DNA of 64,000 nucleotides from a virus, in IMG/VR virus record IMGVR_UViG_3300010885_023630, positions 1-64,000 of that record; one strand, written 5' to 3'. Numbering within the stretch: position 1 is the first letter of the stretch; every line of letters starts with the position of its first letter. A program made the position numbers and the translations under genes. Under the pieces are notes generated by a model, which was not told the origin of the DNA, did not search any database, and was given only the letters and a program-made list of their open reading frames with translations. Shown here piece after piece: positions 3,084-62,567 of the stretch.

Positions 3084-3978
3084 GTACCATTGGTCCTTGA
3101 TTTTTAAATTGTGATTTATAATGATGTTTAAAGAACTTGCTTTCCGCAGTATCAATGGCCAGCATAGGCAATCCCAGGCGAGTACTTAATTCATCTTCAA
3201 ATAAATGTACAAAATCAATTGGATCAAATTTATGTACAATCGTTTCCCAATAGTCTGCCAACTTGCCAAAGTCTTGTACTTCTGTATAATCCCAATCACT
3301 AAGCATTGTATTATAAGTACCCTGTCTTGCGCCGGCTATTGCCCAAATACCATTTTCATTGTCGGCTCCAACATTGTGCCAAATAGTCAAGTTGTCGTAG
3401 TTGCGACTTACTACACATTGATTGAATTCTTCTAGTGTGGGTTTTGCTCCACGATCTAAACACATTTTAACACCTTCACGAAAACCTGCTCGCCATGCTT
3501 GAAATGGAGTAGCATCAGGATATGTTGTACTGTAGCAGTCGTTCATGGACCAGTAATTGGGATAGAAACAAAATTCTACATTGTTTGCAACTGTGCCATC
3601 TGTAGCTTCGTGTGTACGCATATCATTGACAAATTCTTTTGTCCAGCAACTCATCCCACCATTGCCGTATAATAGGCCATTAATACTGTTGCGAGCTTTC
3701 CAACGAAATACACAATCGCGATTAGTGTCATTGAGTTCTAATTGAAGATTAAAGAACTCTGGATCAGGAATGTTATCACCATCGATTAATACAAAACGAT
3801 CAGTGTCGCTTGCGGCGGCGGCCGCTTTATGTGCAGCATCACTGCCCTTAACTCCGTCGACACGTTTGGCCCATGGGACCATGTTTGAGATTTTAATCCA
3901 AAATTCTTCTTTCTTAGGTTCGTCGTAGGTTAAGAATATACAATCTAAATCTGCTACATCAATAATGTCTGTGGTCAT
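3076..3978 (-). CDS. Putative nucleotide-sugar transferase (GT-A fold-like)
   Basis: FVLIDGDN DxD-type motif after an N-terminal IFLTYDEP strand; clustered with other GT-like genes. Start MTTDII at 3978. Confidence 0.55.
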   Translation of the reverse strand: MTTDIIDVADLDCIFLTYDEPKKEEFWIKISNMVPWAKRVDGVKGSDAAHKAAAAASDTDRFVLIDGDNIPDPEFFNLQLELNDTNRDCVFRWKARNSINGLLYGNGGMSCWTKEFVNDMRTHEATDGTVANNVEFCFYPNYWSMNDCYSTTYPDATPFQAWRAGFREGVKMCLDRGAKPTLEEFNQCVVSRNYDNLTIWHNVGADNENGIWAIAGARQGTYNTMLSDWDYTEVQDFGKLADYWETIVHKFDPIDFVHLFEDELSTRLGLPMLAIDTAESKFFKHHYKSQFKNQGPMVRE

Positions 3979-37873: not shown

Positions 37874-37948
37874 AATTGTTTCCAATGGTTATATTGTATT
37901 TACCGAAGCCATAAACGGCTAAGATAATGTTTTAGTTTTTTAAAGAGG

Positions 37949-37978
37949 TTGACCTTTTGATGATAATTATGTTAGTAT
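37949..37978 (+). promoter_or_regulatory. Sigma70-type promoter for the late sigma gene
   Basis: TTGACC-N18-TAGTAT with extended -10 TG. Confidence 0.55.
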
Positions 37979-38002
37979 GTGCTAACTTTAAAGGATTCGA
38001 AG

Positions 38003-38887
38003 GTGCGCCATAATTATCTTAATAACAAAGACATTTTAAAAGAAATTCACAAGAGCAAAACAACCTACTGCTCATATATTAACAAAGTAGAAGATGCCGA
38101 TTATGACATTATTTTACCAGATGTTGATAAAATAAACAAAAAAAACATACTACAAGCCCGTAAAAATAGAGCAGAACGTCTTGCTAAACTAGCACACGAA
38201 GAAGCCACTAAAGACGGTGTTAAACGTAAACTCGACGAATTTGAAATTAAACTCAAAGACGTTGCTCAAACAGATGTGGTATTTCGCATCATGACATGGG
38301 ACCATATTCCAATTGATGATGTTAAAAGCCGAAAAGCCGCAGTTAAAGCAATGGAAGAAGAAGGCGGGCCAGTTCGTTCAGAATACGACGACGATGAGCT
38401 AGACCTAATCGGCAATACCAAATATGTCAAAGTAAATTTCCCGCCGTTTCAGCACTATCGTGTTGACACAGAAGGCGCACCTGTACTAGTGGGCAAAAGC
38501 CAATGGAAGGGTGATTTAACAACAGGTTCCTATAGCAGGGATCACGGAAACATGACGCCAAAATTGGCTCATATGTTTATTAAACTGTGTGAGCGTTATG
38601 CCACTCGCAGTAACTGGAGAGGATACACCTACAATGAAGAAATGCGCGGACAAGCCCTGTTACAACTCAGCCAAATTGGACTACAATTTGACGAATCAAA
38701 ATCGCAGAACCCTTTTGCGTATTATACTGCCGCTATCACTAATAGCTTTACTCGTGTCCTAAACATTGAAAAACGTAATCAGAACCTACGTGACGATATT
38801 TTAGAAATGAACAACCTAACCCCAAGTTACACACGTCAGGGAATGAAAATTAGTTCAGGTGGCGATGGTGGTGGCTACGACGATTGA
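38003..38887 (+). CDS. gp55: Late transcription sigma factor gp55-like
   Basis: NYLNNKDILKEI..NWRGYTYNEEM..FDESKSQNPFAYYT..SFTRVLNIEK; GTG start after AAGGA; lies before gp47/gp46 as in T4-like phages. Confidence 0.85.
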   Translation: MRHNYLNNKDILKEIHKSKTTYCSYINKVEDADYDIILPDVDKINKKNILQARKNRAERLAKLAHEEATKDGVKRKLDEFEIKLKDVAQTDVVFRIMTWDHIPIDDVKSRKAAVKAMEEEGGPVRSEYDDDELDLIGNTKYVKVNFPPFQHYRVDTEGAPVLVGKSQWKGDLTTGSYSRDHGNMTPKLAHMFIKLCERYATRSNWRGYTYNEEMRGQALLQLSQIGLQFDESKSQNPFAYYTAAITNSFTRVLNIEKRNQNLRDDILEMNNLTPSYTRQGMKISSGGDGGGYDD

Positions 38888-38898
38888 TAAAATTAGTG

Positions 38899-38927
38899 TT
38901 GACTAAGTCAACAAAGTAGTCTATACT
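38899..38927 (+). promoter_or_regulatory. Sigma70 promoter TTGACT-N17-TATACT with a palindrome over the -35 box
   Basis: The ATG at 38934 lies 6 nt after the -10 box; GTTGACT-A-AGTCAAC palindrome at 38898-38912. Confidence 0.7.
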
Positions 38928-38933
38928 GTTTAA

Positions 38934-39953
38934 ATGACAAATCTATTCAAAAAAGCCGCTATCTTTACGGATATTCACTTTGGACTCAAATCAAACAGCA
39001 CACTACATAACGAAGATTGTTTAAATTTTGTTAAGTGGGCAACTGCTAAAGCCAAGGAGGAAGGTTGCGAAACTTGCCTCTTTCTTGGAGATTGGCACAA
39101 CAATAGAGCCAGCATCAACATTCTTACACTAGGCTACAGCCTACGTGCGCTGGAGCATATGAATGACAACTTTGACAATGTGTACTTTATTCCTGGTAAC
39201 CATGATCTTTATTATAGGGATAAGAGAGATGTCCAAAGTGTTGAATGGGCAAAACATTTACCTAACATCCATATTGTTAATGATTGGTTTGACAGTGGTA
39301 ACGTTACTATTGCCCCTTGGCTTGTGGCCGACGATCACAAGCGTCTTAAACGACTCAAAGGTAAATATATGTTTGGGCACTTCGAATTGCCTGGCTACTT
39401 AATGAATGCCATGGTTGCCATGCCCGATCACGGTGAAGTAGATCCTAAAAACGATTTAGCAGGTTTTGAGCACGTATTCTCAGGGCATTTCCACAAGCGT
39501 CAAACTAAAGGCAATATCACTTATGTAGGTAATTGCTTCCCGCACAACTATGCGGACGCCGGCGATGATGACCGTGGACTAATGATATTGGAGTGGGACA
39601 AAGAACCCGAGTATCATGCGTGGCCCGATCAACCTATATATCGTGTGTTCCAACTAAGCGATGTACTTAAACATACCGAAGTAATGCTTAAACCAAACAT
39701 GCACGTTCGTGTTAACTTAGACATTGATATCAGTTACGAAGAAGCCACCTTTATCAAAGAAACATTTATTGATACTTATAAGTTACGTGAAATTACCTTA
39801 ATACCGGCCAAGACAACAGATCTAACTGACTACGAAATTCAAGGTAACATAGAATTTGAAAGTGTCGACCAAATTGTGTTTAGTCAATTAAGCACAATCG
39901 ATAGTAATCAATACAACCCAAACCTACTGTTGGATATCTATAGAAATTTATAA
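38934..39953 (+). CDS. gp47: Recombination endonuclease subunit (Mre11/SbcD-like)
   Basis: Metallophosphoesterase motifs TDIHFG, GDW, GNHD, GHF and SGHFH. Confidence 0.9.
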   Translation: MTNLFKKAAIFTDIHFGLKSNSTLHNEDCLNFVKWATAKAKEEGCETCLFLGDWHNNRASINILTLGYSLRALEHMNDNFDNVYFIPGNHDLYYRDKRDVQSVEWAKHLPNIHIVNDWFDSGNVTIAPWLVADDHKRLKRLKGKYMFGHFELPGYLMNAMVAMPDHGEVDPKNDLAGFEHVFSGHFHKRQTKGNITYVGNCFPHNYADAGDDDRGLMILEWDKEPEYHAWPDQPIYRVFQLSDVLKHTEVMLKPNMHVRVNLDIDISYEEATFIKETFIDTYKLREITLIPAKTTDLTDYEIQGNIEFESVDQIVFSQLSTIDSNQYNPNLLLDIYRNL

Positions 39954-41462
39954 ATGAATACCATTACCCGAGACTGTATTAACAGAGATATAAAGTTATT
40001 CCAGTTTAAAGAAGCCGAATTAGATCGTACATACAATTACGAAGAATTCTGTTGGCTCATTGACCGCTGGAAAATACTGCTAGTTGACAAATATAAAGCC
40101 GAGCGTGGGCAAACTTGTTTAATTGATTATACGTTTATTAGCCCCATGTACTTTGCCGCTATCTTTGCTGCAAGCGAACTAGGATTAATCTTAATTGTTG
40201 ATTTGCCGCATTGTTATAATGATCAAGATGTGTTAAGTTACAAAGTAAACATGCATGGTAAAATTGATTATATTATTACTCACGAAGTAAAATACAATCC
40301 TGATCATGTGTTTTATTTTGAATATGATCTTAAGCGTAATGCCCATATAGGGAAGAATGTAATATTTCAGCGGGAGTTACACGAGCACGTTTCCAGTAAT
40401 CCCGATTTAATCAACACCGTCAGCAAACTTATATGGTGTAGGCCCGAAGATACATTAGTCTATGCCTGTAGCAGTGGCACAACCGGTTTGCCTAAACGCA
40501 TACAAGATAATCACGAAAAAATCTATTTGATGGCAAAGCGTCTTGAAACAAACATGGGCTTTGAATCAACGGACAAGATTTTACATACTCGCAACATACA
40601 CCACGGAGCAAGTATGGTTTATCATTTCTTGCCTAGCTTTATGTGCGGTGGATCGCAATACACTCCAGGATTCACAGTAGACGATTTATCTGAAGCGGGA
40701 ATTAAACGAATAATTAAATTTGTTAAAGACTATCAAATTGATCATGTGTTTTTATATCGTCCAGAGTTTTTATATAACTTTTTAAACTACTGCGAAGCAT
40801 TGCCGTTTCCTTTTAAAATACAGACCTTATTCCAATTTGGAGAAGATGTATTAAAAATGGCACACGAAAAAAATGCTCGTTGGATTAGCGTTAGCTTTGG
40901 CGATACACACATTGGGCTAGGTTTGTTTACTAAAATTGTCGACACACGCCAATTGCCCAAGGATTACGTTCCTAATAACTTTGGACCAGCTAGAGATGAT
41001 TTTTACGAATACGAATTACGCGATCATAAACTCTATGTCAGAATACCTAGCATAGGTCAAGATTGGAAAACCAGTAACGATAAGTTTGATCTAGTCAATG
41101 GAGAATACATTTTCGAAGGACGTGCGGACCAATATCGTATTGGCGAGGAGTGGATAGACTTTGATGCGATGGATCGGGCAGTTAAAGAGATTTTTAAGGG
41201 AGCGGCTAGTTTTAGTCTGGACTTTGAAATGCAAAAGCTGTATTTGGCTGTATGGAAAGATAACCCTACAGCAGAAAAAGAGTTTGACGAATACTTAAAA
41301 ACAAACTACGAAGCCGTACGTGTTGCGTATGTACTAAGAGATCAAAACGTTAAAGAGTTTTTTAACGGAAGAAAAATTGATTTATCAAAAATTAGAGACT
41401 ACGGCCGAGCAGGACTAGGCATTCGATTAGAAGACACATTTTTAAAAGGAAATTTAAGGTGA
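39954..41462 (+). CDS. Adenylate-forming (ANL superfamily, AMP-binding) enzyme
   Basis: P-loop SSGTTGLPK, HHGAS, FGDT, WKTSND, GRAD and terminal RKID correspond to ANL core motifs A3, A4, A5, A7, A8 and A10. Confidence 0.75.
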   Translation: MNTITRDCINRDIKLFQFKEAELDRTYNYEEFCWLIDRWKILLVDKYKAERGQTCLIDYTFISPMYFAAIFAASELGLILIVDLPHCYNDQDVLSYKVNMHGKIDYIITHEVKYNPDHVFYFEYDLKRNAHIGKNVIFQRELHEHVSSNPDLINTVSKLIWCRPEDTLVYACSSGTTGLPKRIQDNHEKIYLMAKRLETNMGFESTDKILHTRNIHHGASMVYHFLPSFMCGGSQYTPGFTVDDLSEAGIKRIIKFVKDYQIDHVFLYRPEFLYNFLNYCEALPFPFKIQTLFQFGEDVLKMAHEKNARWISVSFGDTHIGLGLFTKIVDTRQLPKDYVPNNFGPARDDFYEYELRDHKLYVRIPSIGQDWKTSNDKFDLVNGEYIFEGRADQYRIGEEWIDFDAMDRAVKEIFKGAASFSLDFEMQKLYLAVWKDNPTAEKEFDEYLKTNYEAVRVAYVLRDQNVKEFFNGRKIDLSKIRDYGRAGLGIRLEDTFLKGNLR

Positions 41463-42403
41463 AAAAAGTATTAACTATATTATTAATGAGCCTGGCTACA
41501 CTAGCTGGCGCACAGACAACATTCCCTAACAAGCCAGTTAGATTTATTTTGTCGTTACCGGCCGGTTCCGGCCCCGACGTTGTGTCCAGAAAAGTAGCAG
41601 AGGTCTTATCGGAAAAATGGGGGAAGCCTGTTATTGTTGAAAACAAGCCTGGAGGCGGAGGTAGCATTGCTATCAATTATCTTGACAATGAACCCGGCGA
41701 CGGATATAATATTGGATTTTTTGACGCAGGTGCTATTGTGTCGTATCCTGTGTTGTATAACAAGCCAGAATTAATTGCCACCATTGAACCAATTCGTCCG
41801 TTATTTACAGCACACATGGCATTGATTACTTCCACAGACATTAAGAACTTTAACGAACTTAAACAATTAATGGCCAGTAATACTAATTACGGATCATGGG
41901 CAGTCGGGTCATCTGGGCACTTATCTGGTGCCGAGTTTGGCGCTCAAATTCGCACAGGTATGGATCATGTTGCTTATAAAGAGTACCCAGCGTGGTATAT
42001 TGATATTTCTAATAAGCAAATTGCGTACGGGTTTGGTAGTATCGGGTCGTCACGTGCTATGCGTGAGGCAGGACGTATTCACTACTTAGGTATTTCAGCT
42101 AGTAAGCGTGATCCAAACTGGCCCAACGTGCCCACTATTAAAGAACTAACAGGTGTAGAATTAAAGACTCCCCCAAGTTGGTTAGCATTTTATATTCGCA
42201 AGTCCGTGGACAAAAACATTAAAGTACAAATAGAAAAAGACATGCGAGAAGCCGCGCAAGATCCTCGCGTTAAAGAAGCTATTGCTAAATTAGATTATGT
42301 TGATTACGGTTCTATGTCGTTGCCAGAGTTTAATCGGTTGGTAGCACAAGATATTGTTAATTATGGAAATGTTGCTAGAAAGTTTAACATTAATGTACAA
42401 TAA
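41459..42403 (+). CDS. Bug/TctC-family periplasmic solute-binding protein (tripartite tricarboxylate transporter receptor)
   Basis: Signal peptide MKKVLTILLMSLATLAGA; FPNKPVRFILSLPAGSGPDVVSR..WGKPVIVENKPGGGG; HVAYK; PNVPTIKE. Confidence 0.9.
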   Translation: MKKVLTILLMSLATLAGAQTTFPNKPVRFILSLPAGSGPDVVSRKVAEVLSEKWGKPVIVENKPGGGGSIAINYLDNEPGDGYNIGFFDAGAIVSYPVLYNKPELIATIEPIRPLFTAHMALITSTDIKNFNELKQLMASNTNYGSWAVGSSGHLSGAEFGAQIRTGMDHVAYKEYPAWYIDISNKQIAYGFGSIGSSRAMREAGRIHYLGISASKRDPNWPNVPTIKELTGVELKTPPSWLAFYIRKSVDKNIKVQIEKDMREAAQDPRVKEAIAKLDYVDYGSMSLPEFNRLVAQDIVNYGNVARKFNINVQ

Positions 42404-43865
42404 TAAAATCGTAACAAGACATTGCGTCAATCCAGACATAATCATACATCGTCATAATATCGACGGTACTCCTACACGCTCATGGAATTACCAAGAGTTT
42501 AGTGATATGGTTAATTTCTGGAAAGTAATGCTAGTAGAAAAATATGATCCTAAGCCCGGGCAAAAGGCGTTTGTGTATGGTACTCCAGGTATACACTATT
42601 ATACAGCACTATTTGCCGCAATAGAACTAGGACTTGTTATGATTATCGACTGGCCGCATTGTCGTAGCGAGGAAGACTTTAAGAGTTATAAAGTTAATAT
42701 GTTCGGTAAGTTGGATTTTGTTATTACTGAGCGTATAGATTTTTTACGACCCGAGAGTCCAGAGTATCAGCCATGGGAACATGCTCGCAATACACAATTA
42801 TCGAATACTCAAGTATATTTTGATGAGTTAGACACGTATACTATACAAGATAATTCCAGGTACGAAGAAATTTCTAATCGTATTGTTCCTAAACCCGACG
42901 ATATAATGCTTGAGTATTGTAGTAGCGGCACAACCGGTACTCCTAAAAAATTATACGAAACTCATAAAAAGATATATCGTATGGCTGAACGTTTAGGGAA
43001 ATACTTTGGATACAAGGCTGACGATAAATGCTTACACACTAACAACATACACCACGGTGCTAGTTTGTGTTACTACTGGTTACCTACATTTATGATTTGC
43101 CGCGAGCATTATAGTCAGGATCCTAGAGTATTGCTTTCATTGGACTGGATTAGAAAAGAAAAAATTAATCAAATGTTTTTATATCATCCGTCAATGTTGC
43201 TATCTTGGTTAGTAGGAACTAAACCAGTTGATCATGAAGTTAATATTGTTACACTATATCAGATTACCAAAGAAGTTGCTGGCTTAATGAAAGAAAAAAA
43301 TATTACTAGTGTACAAACTAGCTTTGGTGACACTAGTATTGGGTTAGGATTCTTTATTAAGAAAGTTACACAGGAAACTGATTTAGCATCGTATAATGTT
43401 ACTAATATGGGCCCACAGCTAGATGATAATTTTTTCCTACTAGAAGTCAGAGACGGTCTGTTGTATATTTCGTGTCCCGAAATGGGCGAAGGTTGGCGCA
43501 CTAGCGACGATGTGTTTGATTTAATCGATGGTGACTTTTATTTTAAAGGTCGCGCAAATTTATACAGAATCAATGACGAATGGATTTCATTGAATCAACT
43601 AATAGATAAAGTAAATCAGTTATTTGGGGAAAACAAAGCGGCAGTTGTAGTTGATGCTGACGCACAAAAATTATATTTAGGTGTGTGGGAAGAAAATCCC
43701 GAAGCCGAACAAAAGTTTAACGAGTACTTAGAATCGACGTGGCAATTACTTAGACTGTCTTATGTATTACGCGGTTACACCTACGATGACTTTTACAATA
43801 GTCGAAAAATTGATAACTCCAAAATTCGAGATTATTGTCGTACTCGATTAGGTTTATCTTCTTAA
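42393..43865 (+). CDS. Adenylate-forming (ANL superfamily) enzyme, paralog of 39954..41462
   Basis: SSGTTGTPK, NIHHGAS, SFGDT, WRTSDD, FKGRA and SRKID; start MYNNK at 42393. Confidence 0.75.
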   Translation: MYNNKIVTRHCVNPDIIIHRHNIDGTPTRSWNYQEFSDMVNFWKVMLVEKYDPKPGQKAFVYGTPGIHYYTALFAAIELGLVMIIDWPHCRSEEDFKSYKVNMFGKLDFVITERIDFLRPESPEYQPWEHARNTQLSNTQVYFDELDTYTIQDNSRYEEISNRIVPKPDDIMLEYCSSGTTGTPKKLYETHKKIYRMAERLGKYFGYKADDKCLHTNNIHHGASLCYYWLPTFMICREHYSQDPRVLLSLDWIRKEKINQMFLYHPSMLLSWLVGTKPVDHEVNIVTLYQITKEVAGLMKEKNITSVQTSFGDTSIGLGFFIKKVTQETDLASYNVTNMGPQLDDNFFLLEVRDGLLYISCPEMGEGWRTSDDVFDLIDGDFYFKGRANLYRINDEWISLNQLIDKVNQLFGENKAAVVVDADAQKLYLGVWEENPEAEQKFNEYLESTWQLLRLSYVLRGYTYDDFYNSRKIDNSKIRDYCRTRLGLSS

Positions 43866-43872
43866 CTTATTA

Positions 43873-43881
43873 TGTTATACT
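43873..43881 (+). promoter_or_regulatory. Extended -10 promoter TGnTATACT upstream of gp46
   Basis: TGTTATACT ends 6 nt before the ATG at 43888; no Shine-Dalgarno seen. Confidence 0.55.
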
Positions 43882-43887
43882 AACTCA

Positions 43888-45657
43888 ATGTTTAAAATAA
43901 AAACTCTAACGGTTAAAAACTTTATGAGTGTAGGCAATACTACACAAGCGGTTGATTTTGATCGACGTGACTTAACACTGGTTTTGGGCGAAAATTTAGA
44001 CTTAGGAGGAGACGACTCCGGCGCACGAAACGGTACAGGTAAAACAACTATTATCAACGCATTGAGCTATGCCCTGTACGGTAACGCCCTTACTAATATT
44101 AAAAAAGACAATTTGATCAATAAGACCAATACCAAAGGCATGATGGTTACTATTGATTTTGAAAAAGAAGGAGAATTATATCGTATTGAGCGTGGGCGTA
44201 AACCTAACATAATGAAATTTTGGGTCGGTGATAACGAAAAAGAAATCACTGATGACGCACAAGGTGACAGCAGAGAAACACAAGCAGACATTGAACGTAT
44301 GCTAGGCATGAGCCACGACATGTTCAAACATATTGTAGCTCTTAACACCTACACTGAACCTTTTCTTGCCCTTAAAGCAAACGATCAGCGTACCATCATT
44401 GAACAATTATTGGGCATTACACTACTAAGCGAAAAAGCCGATCGTCTTAAAGAACAAAACAAAGCAACTAAAGATGCTATTACACAAGAAGAGTTTCGTA
44501 TTAAAGCTGTTGGTGATGCCAACAAGCGTATTGAAGAACAAATCGAAGCACTTAAACGTAGACAAACAATGTGGATCAATAAACATGCTGAAGATACAGG
44601 GAAATTACAAACCGCTCTCAGTGAGCTACTCAAAATTGATATTGATGCGGAAATTGCGGCACACAAGGCTCTTGCTGAATATAAGTCAAAGAAGAAAGAT
44701 ATCACTGATTTATCATCCTATATTTCACGATGCGAACAGGACGAAGTACGTGAAAATCGGCTTATTGAAAAGCTCAGGAAAGACATTGCGGCACTCAAAG
44801 ACCATAAGTGTCACTCCTGCGGGCAAGATCTCCACGACGAAAAACACGAGTCTAATTTAACCAGCAAGAAAAAAGAGCTACAAGAAGCTGCATTACAAGC
44901 ACTATCTACAAACACGCAGTGGATGGAACTCACAGATGCGCTTAAAGAGCTAGGCGAGCTAGGCGTTAAACCAGAAACGTTTTACGACAAAGAAGAAGAT
45001 GCTATCCATCATCGTAGTACGTTAGCTAACTTACAGCAACAAATTGAAACCAAGTCCACAGAACAAGATCCGTACCAAGAACAAATTCAAGAAATGTCAG
45101 AACAGGCACTAGAGGAAATTAGCTTTGACCTTATTAATGAACTTACAAATGTCAAGGATCATCAAGAGTTCTTGTTAAAACTATTAACAAACAAGGATAG
45201 TTTTATCCGCAAACGAATTATTGATCAGAATTTAAGTTATTTAAATGCCCGCTTGGGACAATACCTGGACCGTATTGGCTTACCACACACAGTTAAGTTT
45301 AACAACGACTTGACTGTAGCCATTACAGAATTAGGTAGAGATCTAGACTTCGACAACTTGAGTCGTGGAGAACGTAACCGCTTGATTTTATCCTTGAGTT
45401 GGGCGTTCCGCGATGTTTGGGAAAGCCTATATCAACCCATTAACTTGTTGTTCATTGACGAGTTAGTAGACAGCGGTATGGATAGTTCCGGAGTTGAAAA
45501 CTCTTTAGCTATCCTAAAAAAGATGAGTCGTGAAGCTAACAAGTCAATTTGGTTAGTGTCACACAAGGATGAGCTAGCGGGTCGTGTCAACAATACACTA
45601 CACGTAGTTAAAGAAAATGGATTTACAAGTTACAACACCGACGTCGACATTGCTTAA
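43888..45657 (+). CDS. gp46: Recombination ATPase subunit (Rad50/SbcC-like)
   Basis: KNFMSVG, Walker A NGTGKTT, zinc hook CHSC, signature LSRGE, Walker B LLFIDE and SH motif. Confidence 0.92.
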   Translation: MFKIKTLTVKNFMSVGNTTQAVDFDRRDLTLVLGENLDLGGDDSGARNGTGKTTIINALSYALYGNALTNIKKDNLINKTNTKGMMVTIDFEKEGELYRIERGRKPNIMKFWVGDNEKEITDDAQGDSRETQADIERMLGMSHDMFKHIVALNTYTEPFLALKANDQRTIIEQLLGITLLSEKADRLKEQNKATKDAITQEEFRIKAVGDANKRIEEQIEALKRRQTMWINKHAEDTGKLQTALSELLKIDIDAEIAAHKALAEYKSKKKDITDLSSYISRCEQDEVRENRLIEKLRKDIAALKDHKCHSCGQDLHDEKHESNLTSKKKELQEAALQALSTNTQWMELTDALKELGELGVKPETFYDKEEDAIHHRSTLANLQQQIETKSTEQDPYQEQIQEMSEQALEEISFDLINELTNVKDHQEFLLKLLTNKDSFIRKRIIDQNLSYLNARLGQYLDRIGLPHTVKFNNDLTVAITELGRDLDFDNLSRGERNRLILSLSWAFRDVWESLYQPINLLFIDELVDSGMDSSGVENSLAILKKMSREANKSIWLVSHKDELAGRVNNTLHVVKENGFTSYNTDVDIA

Positions 45658-46609
45658 TTATCGACGCATTCATATTGAGTTGAGCAGTAAGTGTACATTA
45701 AAGTGTCCGCGCTGTCCGCGAACGGAGTTACAGCCCGAACAACTTAACAGAGAAATTAGTTTGTTTGAGTTTCAACGTGCGTTTAGTTCTGACATACTTA
45801 AAGACATACAGGAAATAACATTCTGTGGTGATGTAGGAGATCCTATATATGCTCGAGACTTTTTACGTATTGTAGAATATATCAAGAAGTCGCGTTTTAA
45901 TATCAGTTTGATTATTGTTACTAACGGTAGTTACAAATCTGAGCTGTGGTGGCAAGAGTTGGGTATGTACCTGCGTTACAATGATAAAGTTACGTTTAGT
46001 GTGGATGGGTGGGATCAAGTCAGCAACGAACAATATCGTGTCAATTCGGACTTTGATAGTATAGTTGCTGGCGCTCGTGCGTTGAGAAAAGTAACTCGAG
46101 CGCAGATGAATTGGTCTGCTATCTATTTTAAATTTAACGAAAGTAAAATGCACTGGATACAGGACCTCGCACGTGATTTGGGGTTCGATACCTTTGAGTC
46201 TGTGCTAAGTTCAAAAGTTGATGGTAGATATTTAATCAACGGAGTAGATCCACTAAAGCCATCCAATGGCTACGTTGCTGGTACTAGCCGGTACGAAGTT
46301 AAAACAGAAAAACTTAATGGCAAGGTACCTATTGTATTTTACGACAAGGTAGATCGTCATCCCTGGGCCAAATGTATGAACTGGGAAAAGGAAATGTTTA
46401 TTAATGTAGACGGATTGGTATTTCCTTGTCCCTGGTTTAATAGTGGCTACTTAGAAAACGATTTTGTAGATAAGCATAGAGATAAAATTAATATTAAAAC
46501 TAGAACACTAAAAGAAATCTTAGCAGATCCTCTGTGGGAAGAACTACACACACGATTTGCTGTGGGCCCATTAGAGATTTGTCGATTAAAATGCGAGAGC
46601 TGTCAATGA
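45617..46609 (+). CDS. Radical SAM protein with C-terminal SPASM/Twitch domain
   Basis: CTLKCPRC, FCGDVGDP, TNG, SVDG; C-terminal KC..GLVFPCPW..ICRLKC. True start may be TTG at 45650. Confidence 0.85.
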   Translation: MDLQVTTPTSTLLNYRRIHIELSSKCTLKCPRCPRTELQPEQLNREISLFEFQRAFSSDILKDIQEITFCGDVGDPIYARDFLRIVEYIKKSRFNISLIIVTNGSYKSELWWQELGMYLRYNDKVTFSVDGWDQVSNEQYRVNSDFDSIVAGARALRKVTRAQMNWSAIYFKFNESKMHWIQDLARDLGFDTFESVLSSKVDGRYLINGVDPLKPSNGYVAGTSRYEVKTEKLNGKVPIVFYDKVDRHPWAKCMNWEKEMFINVDGLVFPCPWFNSGYLENDFVDKHRDKINIKTRTLKEILADPLWEELHTRFAVGPLEICRLKCESCQ

Positions 46610-47865
46610 GTAATGTATTTTGTAATATTCCTTGGGTAGAAGTCCATATCAATGCAGATGGGACTTACCATACCTGCGGCGCACAAACCAATCGTATCAG
46701 TGGCACAGAAGAAGCTAAACTGTACAATGTACACAACATGACTATTCCTGCGTGGATCAACAGCGAGCATCAGCGCAGGGCTAGGATTAATAAACTTAAT
46801 AACATACCTGAGTCTGCTTGTGCTATGTGTTATCACGAAGAAAGTTTAGGTAGTAGTAGTAAGCGAGTTAAAGAAAATTTAAAAAGCGGCATTACTGAAA
46901 ACAATTTTGAACTTACATTTATACACAGTAAAGACTATCCCTTGTTTGATTATTCGGCACGTAACAAAGGCTTAACTGATTTTGATCGTCCTACCAGCTA
47001 TCATTTAAGTTTAGGTAACGAATGTAATTTGGCCTGTAAAATGTGTGGGCCTACTGCTAGTAGTCGACTGGCTGTACAAATGATCAAAGAAGGTACATAT
47101 TCTGGCCCGGCACGTATGAACTGGACCGAAGACGAAACAGCGTGGAATCACGTAGTAGACTACATTTGCACTACCGAAAACCTAAAGTTTGTACACCTAA
47201 TAGGCGGGGAACCATTGATGAATCCTCGCTTCGAACAGTTGATAGATAGGCTTTTAGCAGCCAAAAAGACAGATATTTACTTAGGGTTTACTACCAACGG
47301 CACTATGTTTAACCACAATTTAATGACTAAATTATCGGCATTTAGGCACGTAGATGTAGGAGTTAGCATAGAGTGTTGGGGCGAATTAAACGACCTAGTA
47401 AGGCAAGGTTCTACTACACAAACCGTGCTAGATAACATAGATCAGTACTTGAAATACCGTCGACAGGCACACATTTACGTTACGCTACGGGCAGTACCTA
47501 GCGCACTTACAGTACACACGCTAGACGAATTGTATAAGTGGTGTATTACTCGCGAGCTAGATGTGGTAACTAATATATTGGTAGAACCCGAATATCAACA
47601 GATATCGCAACTACCAAAAGAAATTAAAGAACGGTTAATAGCACGTTATGAGCTATGGCAACATAGCGAGCCAGCACCTGCTGACAGTAATCCTAGAGAC
47701 CCAACTTGGTTTAAACAACATATCGATAACGAAATTATGGCAATCATCATGGCACTCAAACAAGAACCCGAACACAATTTAACTGATGAACTTTACGATA
47801 AACTTGAACTTTGGGGTTGGTTTGACCACCCAGAGGTGAAAAAATATTTCTTCATATGCGATTAA
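46606..47865 (+). CDS. Radical SAM protein (Twitch/SPASM-like N-terminus)
   Basis: FCNIPW..TC..CAMC, then CNLACKMC, GGEPL, TTNG; ATGA overlap at 46606. Confidence 0.85.
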   Translation: MSNVFCNIPWVEVHINADGTYHTCGAQTNRISGTEEAKLYNVHNMTIPAWINSEHQRRARINKLNNIPESACAMCYHEESLGSSSKRVKENLKSGITENNFELTFIHSKDYPLFDYSARNKGLTDFDRPTSYHLSLGNECNLACKMCGPTASSRLAVQMIKEGTYSGPARMNWTEDETAWNHVVDYICTTENLKFVHLIGGEPLMNPRFEQLIDRLLAAKKTDIYLGFTTNGTMFNHNLMTKLSAFRHVDVGVSIECWGELNDLVRQGSTTQTVLDNIDQYLKYRRQAHIYVTLRAVPSALTVHTLDELYKWCITRELDVVTNILVEPEYQQISQLPKEIKERLIARYELWQHSEPAPADSNPRDPTWFKQHIDNEIMAIIMALKQEPEHNLTDELYDKLELWGWFDHPEVKKYFFICD

Positions 47866-47879
47866 GATAACTAGTATGC

Positions 47880-48308
47880 ATGACTTGGCTTTACGAAACT
47901 TCCACTATAGAAACCTTACCAGAGGACTGTATCGGATTTGTTTATTTGATTACAAATAACATTTCTGGCAGGAAGTATATTGGAAAAAAATTAGCCAAGT
48001 TTAGTAAAACAACATACAAAGTAGTTAAATTAAAAAACGGCAAGAAGAAGCGTAAAAAAATCAAAGGCAAAATTGACTCTGATTGGCAAACCTATTACGG
48101 CTCAAATATTGAACTCAATCGAGACGTAACAGCATTAGGCGAGGAAAACTTTACAAGAGAAATATTATTCTACTGTAAAAGCAAAGCAGAATGTAGTTAC
48201 ATTGAAGCAAGAGAACAATTTTCACACAAAGTGTTAGAATCTGACGACTATTATAACGGACATATACAAGTCCGTGTACATGGCTCTCATATTAAAAACA
48301 AACTCTGA
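47880..48308 (+). CDS. Small GIY-YIG family endonuclease
   Basis: GFVYLITNNISGRKYIGKK (GIY-YIG), YYGS, FTREIL, EAREQ, YYNG; Lys-rich insertion KLKNGKKKRKKIKGK. Confidence 0.8.
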   Translation: MTWLYETSTIETLPEDCIGFVYLITNNISGRKYIGKKLAKFSKTTYKVVKLKNGKKKRKKIKGKIDSDWQTYYGSNIELNRDVTALGEENFTREILFYCKSKAECSYIEAREQFSHKVLESDDYYNGHIQVRVHGSHIKNKL

Positions 48309-48309
48309 C

Positions 48310-48840
48310 ATAAAGTCATTTCCCATTATACAGTAGTAGGCTAGCGCAGGCTAAACTTCATGCGCCTATGACAACAGGACCTCGGGTCGCTGGGACGGAA
48401 ATCTCTTTGCTGTAAAAGAGTGCTTAACCACTATCCTTAACAGGACGAGGATCGCTAATTGCCGCGGTTTGGTTATTTGAAGAAATGAATAAGGCTGAAA
48501 AGACGCTCAAGCGATTGAGCACGGTTAATGCGTATGTTAGCGTATATGTATTAATCCGCCGTTGTAAAGACACAACTCGAGGTACCGGACAACCGCCTCT
48601 GTAATGTTGTAACGCTAAGTGACTGTGCTACTCGGATAATGCTACAGAACAATCTTTGCCCTTGAGCGGGCAAAGTGTGACCAATTAATCTGGATAATAC
48701 TAAAAAACAACAATATTAAATCAAAGAAAAAATGTTGTGAGCGTAAGCGAAACAACAGACTTACGTAGTAAGTCTTAAATGAATCATACAATCACAGAGA
48801 TACTTAATATGTTCCTTGCGAACATATGATTCATTTTCTT
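48310..48840 (+). ncRNA. Candidate large structured non-coding RNA (or structured DNA element)
   Basis: No ORF of 60 aa or more; at least 9 stem-loops, e.g. GCTCAA-GCGA-TTGAGC (48505-48520), CTTTGCCC/GGGCAAAG (48654-48675), AGACTTAC-GTA-GTAAGTCT (48757-48775); G-U-rich stem at 48525-48554. Confidence 0.55.
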
Positions 48841-48854
48841 AGATAAACACTAGA

Positions 48855-49088
48855 TTATTTGTTTTTCCAGATGCCATATAGAACCCAAATTGCTACGAGT
48901 CCTACTAGTCCTTGACTACCAATTGCGGCAATGATTGAAGTAACATTTGCTGTTACGGATACTGCCGGGAAGAATGGTATTGCCATACCCTTGAATAAAA
49001 TTTCTAATACAATAGCTAGGGCTATAATGCTTACACCCACATCTGCTAATGTGTTAGACCATTTCTTAATTTGAGTTAAGATTTCCAT
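48855..49088 (-). CDS. Small membrane protein with two hydrophobic segments (holin-like size)
   Basis: AGGAG RBS, two hydrophobic helices, basic C-terminus WKNK, CTAAATA late-type motif upstream. Confidence 0.6.
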   Translation of the reverse strand: MEILTQIKKWSNTLADVGVSIIALAIVLEILFKGMAIPFFPAVSVTANVTSIIAAIGSQGLVGLVAIWVLYGIWKNK

Positions 49089-49201
49089 TTTACGTCTCCT
49101 TTTAAAAACCAGTATTGCTACCGGTAAGTTATTTAGGTACCGGTTTGCAAAAATAGTAAGCTATTATTATACTTTTAACTAAGATGATACTTATTGTACC
49201 T

Positions 49202-49429
49202 CTAGAAAAATGGTAAACCTGACTCTTTAGTGGTTTCCATATTCTTTTTAATGATGTCTTTGATAAGGTCTCGTTCTTGATCGGACAACATTAACGCATC
49301 GTCATAGCTTAACCCGCCACGCATGTGCCAGCTAAAACTTAATGCTTCGTGTCTTATGGCTTTTGACTCTGAATCAAATTTATTTAGATACTCAACCACA
49401 CCCTCGCGGTCAAGAGTCAAAAGCCTCAT
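49202..49429 (-). CDS. Tail/baseplate assembly chaperone, gp51-like (possible frameshift extension of the upstream gene)
   Basis: WHMRGGLSYDDALMLSDQERD helix pattern; ATGA overlap with the stop of the gp26-like gene. Confidence 0.6.
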   Translation of the reverse strand: MRLLTLDREGVVEYLNKFDSESKAIRHEALSFSWHMRGGLSYDDALMLSDQERDLIKDIIKKNMETTKESGLPFF

Positions 49430-50265
49430 GCGAAAAAACTTGCGTAATTAAAATCCAACGGAACATCGTATGCGTGTTCACATTTAGTACACTTTGCGTT
49501 AACAGGTTTAACACTAGCAGATTGGTTAATTACAGTTAAACGCTTTTGTATTTCTTTCATTACCTTGTAGTCAGACATATCAAAGTATTCTTTGATAAAC
49601 GCAGGGTCCGTAACAACTACACCTTCTTCTGTTGTGATTGAGCGTGTGCTACTGGCGCAAATTTCAATGTTTAAATCCACTAACTTTTTTAAGTATGCGT
49701 CGGATTTTGATTTCTTTTCTTCGTCTGGGATAGCGTCGTCGGTAACTGTGCGTAATATTTGCTGTTCTGTAAAAGCAATTTGATTTACGCGATTAACTTC
49801 AAAATATGGTTGTGGGCGTAGTACAATTTTTAAACCGTCGAACTCAACTGGGGTTTCATAATCGGGCATGGCAATTTGATCTACTAGACTGCTTAATGCT
49901 ACACCAAACCTGTTGTCTTCTTCACAAGCAGGACAAACACTATCAAATTCCATTTCAGCGCCGTAACTGGCGATGCGTATGTTTAGCAAAATAACGTCTA
50001 CGTCGATACTAGGCATTGACCACGCATCTTTAATGTTTGGGCAACAGCTTTGTATAACATCGACTACACCTTGTCCGTTCATTAGTGCGTCTGGTGTACG
50101 AATAGTAATTTCGTCACGAGCTGTCATTGGATACACAGGAATTTCCCCAGTAACTGGTAAGTCTAAACTACCCTCGGGCCAGAATCTGCCGTTTGATGGT
50201 AGTTTAATATAAGTTGCTGGCTGTCTAAAGTGTTTGAACAGCGGATTATTTGGTTTTTGTTCCAT
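49426..50265 (-). CDS. gp26: Baseplate hub/tail assembly chaperone gp26-like
   Basis: YIKLPS..PMTARDE..DVDVILLNIRIASYG..CPAC..CTKC..SFF matches the T4 gp26-type pattern. Confidence 0.75.
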   Translation of the reverse strand: MEQKPNNPLFKHFRQPATYIKLPSNGRFWPEGSLDLPVTGEIPVYPMTARDEITIRTPDALMNGQGVVDVIQSCCPNIKDAWSMPSIDVDVILLNIRIASYGAEMEFDSVCPACEEDNRFGVALSSLVDQIAMPDYETPVEFDGLKIVLRPQPYFEVNRVNQIAFTEQQILRTVTDDAIPDEEKKSKSDAYLKKLVDLNIEICASSTRSITTEEGVVVTDPAFIKEYFDMSDYKVMKEIQKRLTVINQSASVKPVNAKCTKCEHAYDVPLDFNYASFFA

Positions 50266-62546: not shown

Positions 62547-62567
62547 TCTAATTTAGATTTGGATAAT

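Follow-up and report, generated by a model that had tools for sequence, protein, structure and literature searches.

We analysed a window of 64,000 nucleotides (all positions below are those of the window) that forms part of a 127-kb virus record, G000, which is 36% complete. Portal gp20, gp46 and gp26 are present and the source is a T4-like jumbo phage, whose complete relatives have genomes of 337-347 kb. The locus studied here is the end of a plus-strand operon made up of gp46, two radical-SAM genes and a GIY-YIG gene; a structured RNA element closes the operon and faces convergent late genes. The main features are the following:

43888..45657, plus strand: gp46/SbcC-like recombination nuclease subunit (phrog_77, E 7e-102), the upstream marker of the RNA-ending operon
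47880..48308, plus strand: stand-alone SegE-type GIY-YIG nuclease of 142 aa (PF19835, E 5.7e-32), a putative branched-DNA resolvase and replaceable neighbour of the RNA
48332..48700, plus strand: full structured RNA, type A, ~370 nt (mutual information in 81 homologs, pair counts on 36)
48855..50265, minus strand: convergent late genes, namely a 77-aa ORF, a 75-aa ORF and the gp26 hub protein (PF12322), which bound the element

The two radical-SAM/SPASM genes (45617-47865) lie between gp46 and the nuclease, in a slot whose gene content varies among relatives. TAAATA precedes two of the convergent late genes, and the 3' end of the gp26 gene (49202-49440, minus strand) shows six T and then C, overlapping the start of the 75-aa ORF. 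When ORFs of at least 65 aa are counted, the gap between nuclease and late genes (48309-48854) measures 546 nt. An earlier note on this sequence took it for the largest gap in the window, but it is tied with a gap of 546 nt at 1152-1697; another ORF-free gap, of 523 nt, lies at 3436-3958. Rfam gave no match in either of these two other gaps.

The product of the last gene of the operon agreed with its previous description as a 142-aa GIY-YIG protein with a Lys-rich insertion and no separate DNA-binding domain: it consists of the PF19835 domain, and in a structural model with a pLDDT of 96.6 the insertion folds into a long beta-hairpin rich in Lys (strands 40-50 and 56-66). The best solved match of this model was the I-TevI catalytic domain (Z 8.4, rmsd 2.7, 82 residues aligned), and a Foldseek search with it returned nothing at E 0.001. 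Residues G35, K37, Y72, S75, E109 and N126 were invariant in 81 sequences, and Y22 and Y33 were conserved in at least 90%. The protein is most likely a branched-DNA resolvase belonging to the recombination operon. A search for Endonuclease VII in five relatives gave no match, but the control gave none either. Note that PHROG 447 and many GenBank phage records call this family 'NAD synthetase', a label that the fold contradicts; we suggest that the widely mis-annotated phrog_447 is a resolvase-like nuclease.

Seven stems had been listed in the gap, and all of them are present where the earlier note placed them. Its figure of about 530 nt of structured sequence was too large, since the conserved RNA spans only ~370 nt (48332-48700); positions 48699-48775 hold an A-rich tract and short hairpins, and BLAST similarity to relatives stops near 48790. 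Folding was modestly better than that of shuffled sequences, but over 532 nt the energy was equal on both strands (z of -2.69 on the plus and -2.73 on the minus strand); over 48332-48700 the z values were -1.85 and -0.45, respectively. Folding energy alone is modest and does not pick a strand. The covariation test that had been proposed was more telling, as covariation is present in the type-A homologs (types are described below). Mutual information in 81 non-redundant type-A sequences revealed complementary covariation from ~48332 to ~48620, pseudoknots included. In a structure of 84 pairs, counted on 36 homologs that are a subset of the 81, 87.8% of the cells were paired and double changes occurred at 60 of the 84 pairs. 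None of 500 shuffles was as good and slid controls reached 32-43%, the slid control being lenient because the structure was derived from the window and from mutual information on overlapping sequences. Three helices of this structure were only 58-67% paired in the register used. The RNA lies on the plus strand, because G-U pairs are kept on that strand, and on this comparative sequence evidence covariation settles the reality of a plus-strand RNA. The large phage noncoding RNA suspected before is borne out by it; the motif, however, was already known. Its parts upstream of the 3' end are:

48339..48478, plus strand: 5' domain, Rfam RF01718 Polynucleobacter-1 (102.5 bits against a gathering threshold of 37)
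48538..48617, plus strand: pseudoknot 48538-48542/48613-48617 (helix 12; double changes at 5/5 pairs, 100% paired; drawn in the 2010 supplement, see below)
48561..48609, plus strand: shared core with stems 48573-48576/48606-48609 and 48579-48582/48596-48599 (helices 13-15 together with the core pseudoknot)
48561-48565/48589-48593, plus strand: core pseudoknot (core helices 95-100% paired; core aligns across types A, B and D)

The pseudoknots had been overlooked in the earlier note, which did not recognise the RNA. It was correct in that the RNA is not a tRNA, tmRNA, RNase P or intron, but the Rfam search that it called for identified the 5' domain: the RF01718 match covers model positions 1-141 of 141, and its stems (helices 1-7) are 83-100% paired with compensatory changes. 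ARAGORN found 0 tRNA or tmRNA genes, and a tmRNA-like reading frame was rejected, the spacer length being 41-58 nt in type A. Rfam searches at E <=5 with five loci (types A, B, C, D and a diverged form) returned only RF01718 and three sub-threshold chance matches. A reverse-transcriptase template (retron, DGR or DRT) was also discarded: PF00078 was found in 0/5 related genomes, three of them near-complete, by a search that would miss very diverged reverse transcriptases and whose control was positive in 3/14.

Eighty viral loci were found via the nuclease, and a conserved element lies downstream in 74 of them, the contigs of the other 6 ending too early. These 74 comprise 33 loci of type A, 35 of type B and 6 of type C. 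RF01718 matched 8/8 type A and 0/12 type B or C loci; types B and C share the common core but have unrelated 5' domains, without an Rfam match, in place of the Polynucleobacter-1 domain. A model of the core detected one RNA copy in each of 5/5 related genomes, of which 3 have a completeness of at least 90%. A nucleotide search of 50,697 phage records gave no match to the RNA, hence no cultured helper among them, and the core model applied to five cultured phages with distant nucleases produced one 13.8-bit match (E 0.006) that was not confirmed by HMMs and was set aside.

The object thus belongs to a family that Rfam already lists. Weinberg et al. 2010 (PMC2864571) list Polynucleobacter-1 in a motif table that assigns it no function, and their supplementary alignment, which has the same 5' domain, covers ~280 nt and stops near 48620, at the second strand of the one pseudoknot that it shows; the Rfam model has 141 nt. 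The family, the ~280-nt alignment and the one pseudoknot were therefore already known. The twin-repeat 3' domain is missing from the 2010 alignment, and neither this domain nor types B and C, the directional pairing signal or the link to satellite-like islands turned up in our searches. Literature searches that covered few subscription journals returned no relevant paper on Polynucleobacter-1 and nothing relevant on GIY-YIG proteins with noncoding RNA, DUF6641, satellites or huge-phage origins.

The 3' end of the RNA is formed by two 22-nt direct repeats around a hairpin:

48619..48640, plus strand: repeat copy 1, the proposed RNA guide, with block I at 48619-48625 and a 7-mer at 48634-48640 (identity covariation with copy 2; wobble direction)
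48654..48675, plus strand: hairpin spacer between the repeats (a hairpin of varying sequence at the same place in types A, B and D)
48677..48698, plus strand: repeat copy 2, whose minus (template) strand is the proposed target, with block I at 48677-48683 and a 7-mer at 48692-48698

The motif GGATAAT, which had been noticed twice, does occur at 48634 and 48692, but a third copy lies far off at 62561, and it had escaped notice that the first two sit inside the repeats. The final 7-mers were identical within the genome in 126 of 127 phage sequences (80/81 of type A, 42/42 of type B and 4/4 of type C), with an extraction pattern that demanded the consensus shape in both copies and not identity; between genomes, identity was 16-19% (0.16 and 0.19). 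Type A has nine 7-mer variants. According to mutual information, four column pairs in the final 7-mers covary by identity, not by complementarity. On a type-A tree built without the repeats we counted 37 changes in copy 1 and 38 in copy 2, and at position 1 of the 7-mer 12/12 independent pairs changed together (p 0.0005). Diverged relatives carry unrelated twin words, read by eye in 12 loci. A guide acting on another site in cis was rejected, as no complement was found: the 7-mer has no fixed-place partner from 480 nt upstream to 300 nt downstream, and its reverse complement (at most one mismatch) fell in a common 20-nt bin in at most 8/58 type A and 8/34 type B loci.

The upstream block of the repeats gives a direction to this relation. 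Between the two copies of block I, 621 positions were identical, 109 differed in the wobble-permitted direction (a G/A or T/C order that lets plus-strand copy 1 pair with the minus strand of copy 2), 4 in the reverse direction and 40 by transversion. All seven positions could pair in 61/81 sequences in the forward sense against 20/81 in the reverse. The sequences compared are not independent of each other (the two main positions changed 15 and 22 times), and the wobble bias could in part reflect a fixed copy 1 combined with transition drift in copy 2. Taking both blocks together, we consider it probable that copy 1, as RNA, forms base pairs with the template strand of copy 2. If the repeats were instead tandem sites for an initiator or repressor protein, or a DNA-only slipped structure, apart from any function of the RNA, their iteron-like spacing and the positions that are near-invariant in both copies would be accounted for; nine type-A 7-mers that switch together dozens of times, the directional wobble and the island 7-mers that differ from the phage ones (see below) would not, and we judge this interpretation improbable. 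Two other roles were tried and rejected: a genome-wide promoter or operator, since nowhere in the 127 kb does the extended motif recur outside the two sites, and integrase att cores, since no inverted arm is present and the islands bear different TGTCG-N7-CGACA sites.

The earlier note had also raised the idea that the RNA is a partner of the nuclease in a ribonucleoprotein. In such a case a nuclease would use the RNA as both scaffold and guide and would cut or nick at copy 2, with GIY-YIG or PD-(D/E)XK proteins as interchangeable catalytic parts. This would agree with the position of the element downstream of the gene in the 74 loci above (within 100 nt in 59 of them), with a basic hairpin in a protein without a separate DNA-binding domain, and with repeats that act like a guide and its target. 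Co-occurrence is real but not obligate, however. Genes are inserted between nuclease and RNA in 15/74 loci. The nuclease lies upstream of the RNA in 69/72 RNA-first loci, a biased count, because the pattern was designed on GIY-adjacent copies, and one that leaves out 40/120 loci with 300-nt flanks and 8 more with <1 kb upstream. In the phage of locus L093 the RNA follows MazG- and GroES-like genes without the nuclease, and none of 29 island loci has a SegE-type gene. Conversely, six cultured phages with 37-52% identical nucleases showed no RNA match beside the gene, and the five annotated ones have no gap above ~150 nt.

Two unrelated folds occupy the nuclease slot. A PD-(D/E)XK gene (PF24608; phrog_244, annotated as RusA-like Holliday junction resolvase) fills it at one RNA-first locus. 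Among 80 loci of that family, gp46 lies within 2 kb in 71, the RNA is present in 48 and GIY-YIG in 0, and in five near-complete genomes GIY-YIG and PDDEXK_15 were mutually exclusive (3 vs 2). The two nucleases probably do the same job, which would likely be the resolution of branched DNA. Moreover, nucleases that are 95-99% identical flank different RNA types and 7-mers, those of 98.6% identity being next to unrelated 5' types and different 7-mers; the nuclease tree shows 14 switches of RNA type, although its starred branches force only one origin per type. Neither obligate linkage nor co-divergence with one nuclease family, as would be expected of an OMEGA-like system, was observed. The ribonucleoprotein proposal is weakened by all this, and we now find it quite unlikely.

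Beyond copy 2 there are two further features:

48699..48735, plus strand: A-rich tract, a candidate unwinding element (56% A over 45 nt, matched by 0.26% of background windows)
48739..48775, plus strand: GAGC-N-AGCGAA motif (48739-48751) and a hairpin of 8 bp with a 3-nt loop (48757-48775), candidate single-strand DNA signals

Many homologs have a less pronounced A-rich tract, the mean A content of homologs being only 0.28-0.46. A relaxed form of the GAGC motif was found at most 130 nt from copy 2 in 66/79 sequences of type A, 37/42 of type B, 4/4 of type C and 13/15 of type D (120/140 in all, counted without a chance control); its strict form occurs twice in the 127 kb of G000. Eight resolvase-type loci without a detectable RNA (L376, L378, L379, L381, L382, L383, L385 and L387) carry GAGC-N-AGCGA downstream of the gene, at a distance of ~385-570 nt, which hints that more RNA types may exist.

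A scan for sigma-70 promoters gave 4 sites against 6.4 expected, with none on the minus strand that could act as an antisense promoter. Four metatranscriptome runs yielded contigs with at least 82% similarity to the nuclease end and the RNA, of which none spans it. These runs were chosen using this stretch, so that depth cannot rank genes; DNA may be present, and contigs show neither strand nor ends. The contig of one relative ends at ~48697 (depth 2.7). Such an end, and the position of the element at an operon end facing convergent late genes, would suit a terminator or 3'-end former at the convergent junction, in which anchoring dislodges RNA polymerase or the hybrid and releases a stable trans-acting RNA. 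That scheme leaves unexplained the downstream hairpin motifs and the whole module that islands drive from a promoter of their own, no plus-strand terminator-like site was found near copy 2, and we hold it to be very improbable. GC skew at four-fold sites in G000, a record that is 36% complete, ranged from -0.14 to -0.34 in all four gene classes and did not flip at the element, which speaks against a dominant bidirectional origin but says nothing about replication that is unidirectional or driven by recombination.

Scanning bacterial genomes yielded 58 pattern matches, 29 of which were kept as homologs (type D) after dropping 26 without HMM support and 3 phage-like type A copies on short MAG contigs; the records are mostly titled as freshwater Betaproteobacteria. 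The longer regions have chromosomal flanks with host genes. Island RNAs keep the 5' domain (Rfam match in 5/5 genomes tested), the core and the twin repeats; loci L215, L217 and L255 break off after the 5' part. Both repeat copies were readable in 21/29 islands. In 15 non-redundant copies, 14/29 loci being left out as truncated or redundant, the central five letters of the 7-mer matched in all and the full 7-mer in 9, with the mismatches at end positions. TAAATA lies 85-138 nt upstream of the pattern in 29/29 islands (it precedes 27/102 ORFs of G000). Within 80 nt upstream it is absent from all 150 phage copies, and the sole plus-strand TAAATA in 37900-48340 is at 39362, so the phage RNA does not look late.

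Within 3 kb of the island RNAs, a divergent DUF6641 gene was present in 28/29, an integrase in 10/29 and a clamp-loader-like gene in 3/29; the last was found in 3/5 longer regions. In their gene content the type D islands look like phage-inducible islands. No primase, helicase, Rep or terminase match was obtained among the 15 island ORFs scanned. A single-protein search found no DUF6641 in viral contigs, and a DUF6641 model (pLDDT 73.3) matched no viral structure at E 0.001; in five phage genomes none was detected, but the control was silent. The clamp-loader-like gene encodes a short gp44-like subunit (phrog_168; L266 15658-16455, L267 14524-15183, L269 5222-5851), which could divert or jam clamp loading by the helper. 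TGTCG-N7-CGACA sites surround cargo in L266 (3683-13612, five sites), L267 (8597-17075, four) and L268 (6639-10848, three), with none in L269 and L270, and resemble a cassette-capture system for a small tyrosine recombinase. Defence-type cargo near the islands includes a ThsB TIR gene (L268 7374-7964) and a cytosine methyltransferase (L267 17293-18609). Island ORFs next to DUF6641 often start with MRIxEI (L213 1796-2197, L228 1711-2142), like phage proteins starting with MFIAEL or MKITEI (window 54658); this start is possibly a capsid-targeting signal, for which we take the internal proteins of T4 to be the analogy.

The simplest account of a single-copy cis element that a satellite-like island copies would be an origin or a packaging signal, the two kinds of cis element that the earlier note had named; on present sequence comparisons an origin fits better. 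For packaging, the same anchoring of RNA to template would mark a packaging start or a concatemer-processing site for terminase, and islands would copy it in order to be packaged. Theft of packaging signals is common among satellites, and T4 couples packaging to late transcription; the single copy per genome and the late promoter of all 29 island copies would be in keeping with this. The phage copies, however, show no such promoter, some islands carry a clamp-loader-like gene and their scanned ORFs include no terminase match, and thus we rate packaging as unlikely. Against an origin it must be said that the island promoter is late-type, which suits packaging as well, whereas the origin R-loops of T4 are turned off late in infection and require no particular sequence (see below), that integrase and clamp loader are found in a minority of the island stretches, and that island 7-mers are imperfect.

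The origin reading that we propose, and to which we would give an even chance, is that of a cis-acting, self-anchoring preprimer marking an R-loop replication origin similar to that of ColE1 RNA II, which satellite-like islands would use too. It is drawn from the G6 runs and GAGC-N-AGCG motifs of ColE1, the R-loop origins of T4 (see below) and the proposed pairing of the repeats. The phage RNA would form the 3' end of the transcript of the gp46-nuclease operon. With RNA polymerase passing over copy 2, the nascent RNA, already folded, would present copy 1 to the template strand; the transcript would stay hybridised over the A-rich tract, and the displaced strand would expose the downstream hairpins. 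The phage clamp loader, clamp and polymerase might then extend the 3' end of the RNA. The island homolog would be made from a phage late promoter, so that the island would replicate only during infection. A broader proposal is more tentative, and we think it somewhat less probable than not: reprogrammable, protein-independent guide RNAs whose 5' control domains can be exchanged may invade their own template to open origins in T4-like jumbo phages of fresh and marine waters, and may have been captured behind a late promoter by a new class of chromosomal satellites of Limnohabitans, Polynucleobacter and relatives, which would thereby have themselves copied by the replisome of the helper. If any matched 7-mer works, the RNA would be a programmable device for seeding R-loops. 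The preprimer reading gives a testable function to an RNA motif that has lacked one since 2010, and links jumbo phages to a candidate new class of satellites.

An upstream G-run of the ColE1 RNA reportedly pairs with a C-run of the template near the origin (Masukata and Tomizawa are said to have found this in 1990). RNA II of ColE1 is a long folded cis-acting transcript whose persistent RNA-DNA hybrid primes replication (PMC5043065, PMC5703827), and the role of RNase H at ColE1 is treated in PMC8391903. We found in the ColE1 record two same-strand G6 runs 247 nt apart, with GAGC-N-AGCG motifs downstream; two G6 runs appeared in 32/200 shuffles. A folded cis transcript, a same-strand repeated run and the downstream GAGC-N-AGCG motifs are likenesses to the present element, by analogy. 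ColE1 differs in its anchor: the one proposed here consists of two blocks, varies in sequence and sits only ~55 nt from its target.

At T4 oriF and oriG the transcript forms R-loops over an A+T-rich element; plasmids can replicate from these origins in infected cells, clamp and clamp loader are required whereas a specific sequence is not, and UvsW shuts the R-loops off late (PMC3016281). A T4-like phage, a transcript by an A+T-rich tract and, as proposed here, a use by plasmid-like elements are common to both cases. Whereas oriF and oriG measure ~100 bp and have their own middle promoter according to the same source, the RNA described here is pseudoknotted, 370 nt long and bears a matched pair of repeats. 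The comparison bears on two questions that reviews leave open, namely the trigger of persistent R-loops in ColE1 and the rules of T4-type origin R-loops.

The phage satellites P4, PICI and PLE are chromosomal islands with an integrase, a helper-type late promoter and defence cargo. The type D islands resemble them in the integrase that 10/29 have within 3 kb, a helper-type late promoter and ThsB-type cargo, and differ from them in having a gp44-like clamp-loader gene and DUF6641 instead of primase, helicase, Rep and terminase (among the 15 ORFs scanned). Finally, in the IS110 bridge RNA and the OMEGA RNAs, guide and target covary in identity. The same kind of covariation is seen here, in two blocks, between the proposed guide and target; in contrast to those systems, the putative target is fixed in cis beside the guide, there is no obligate protein partner, and the phage shows no mobile-element ends.
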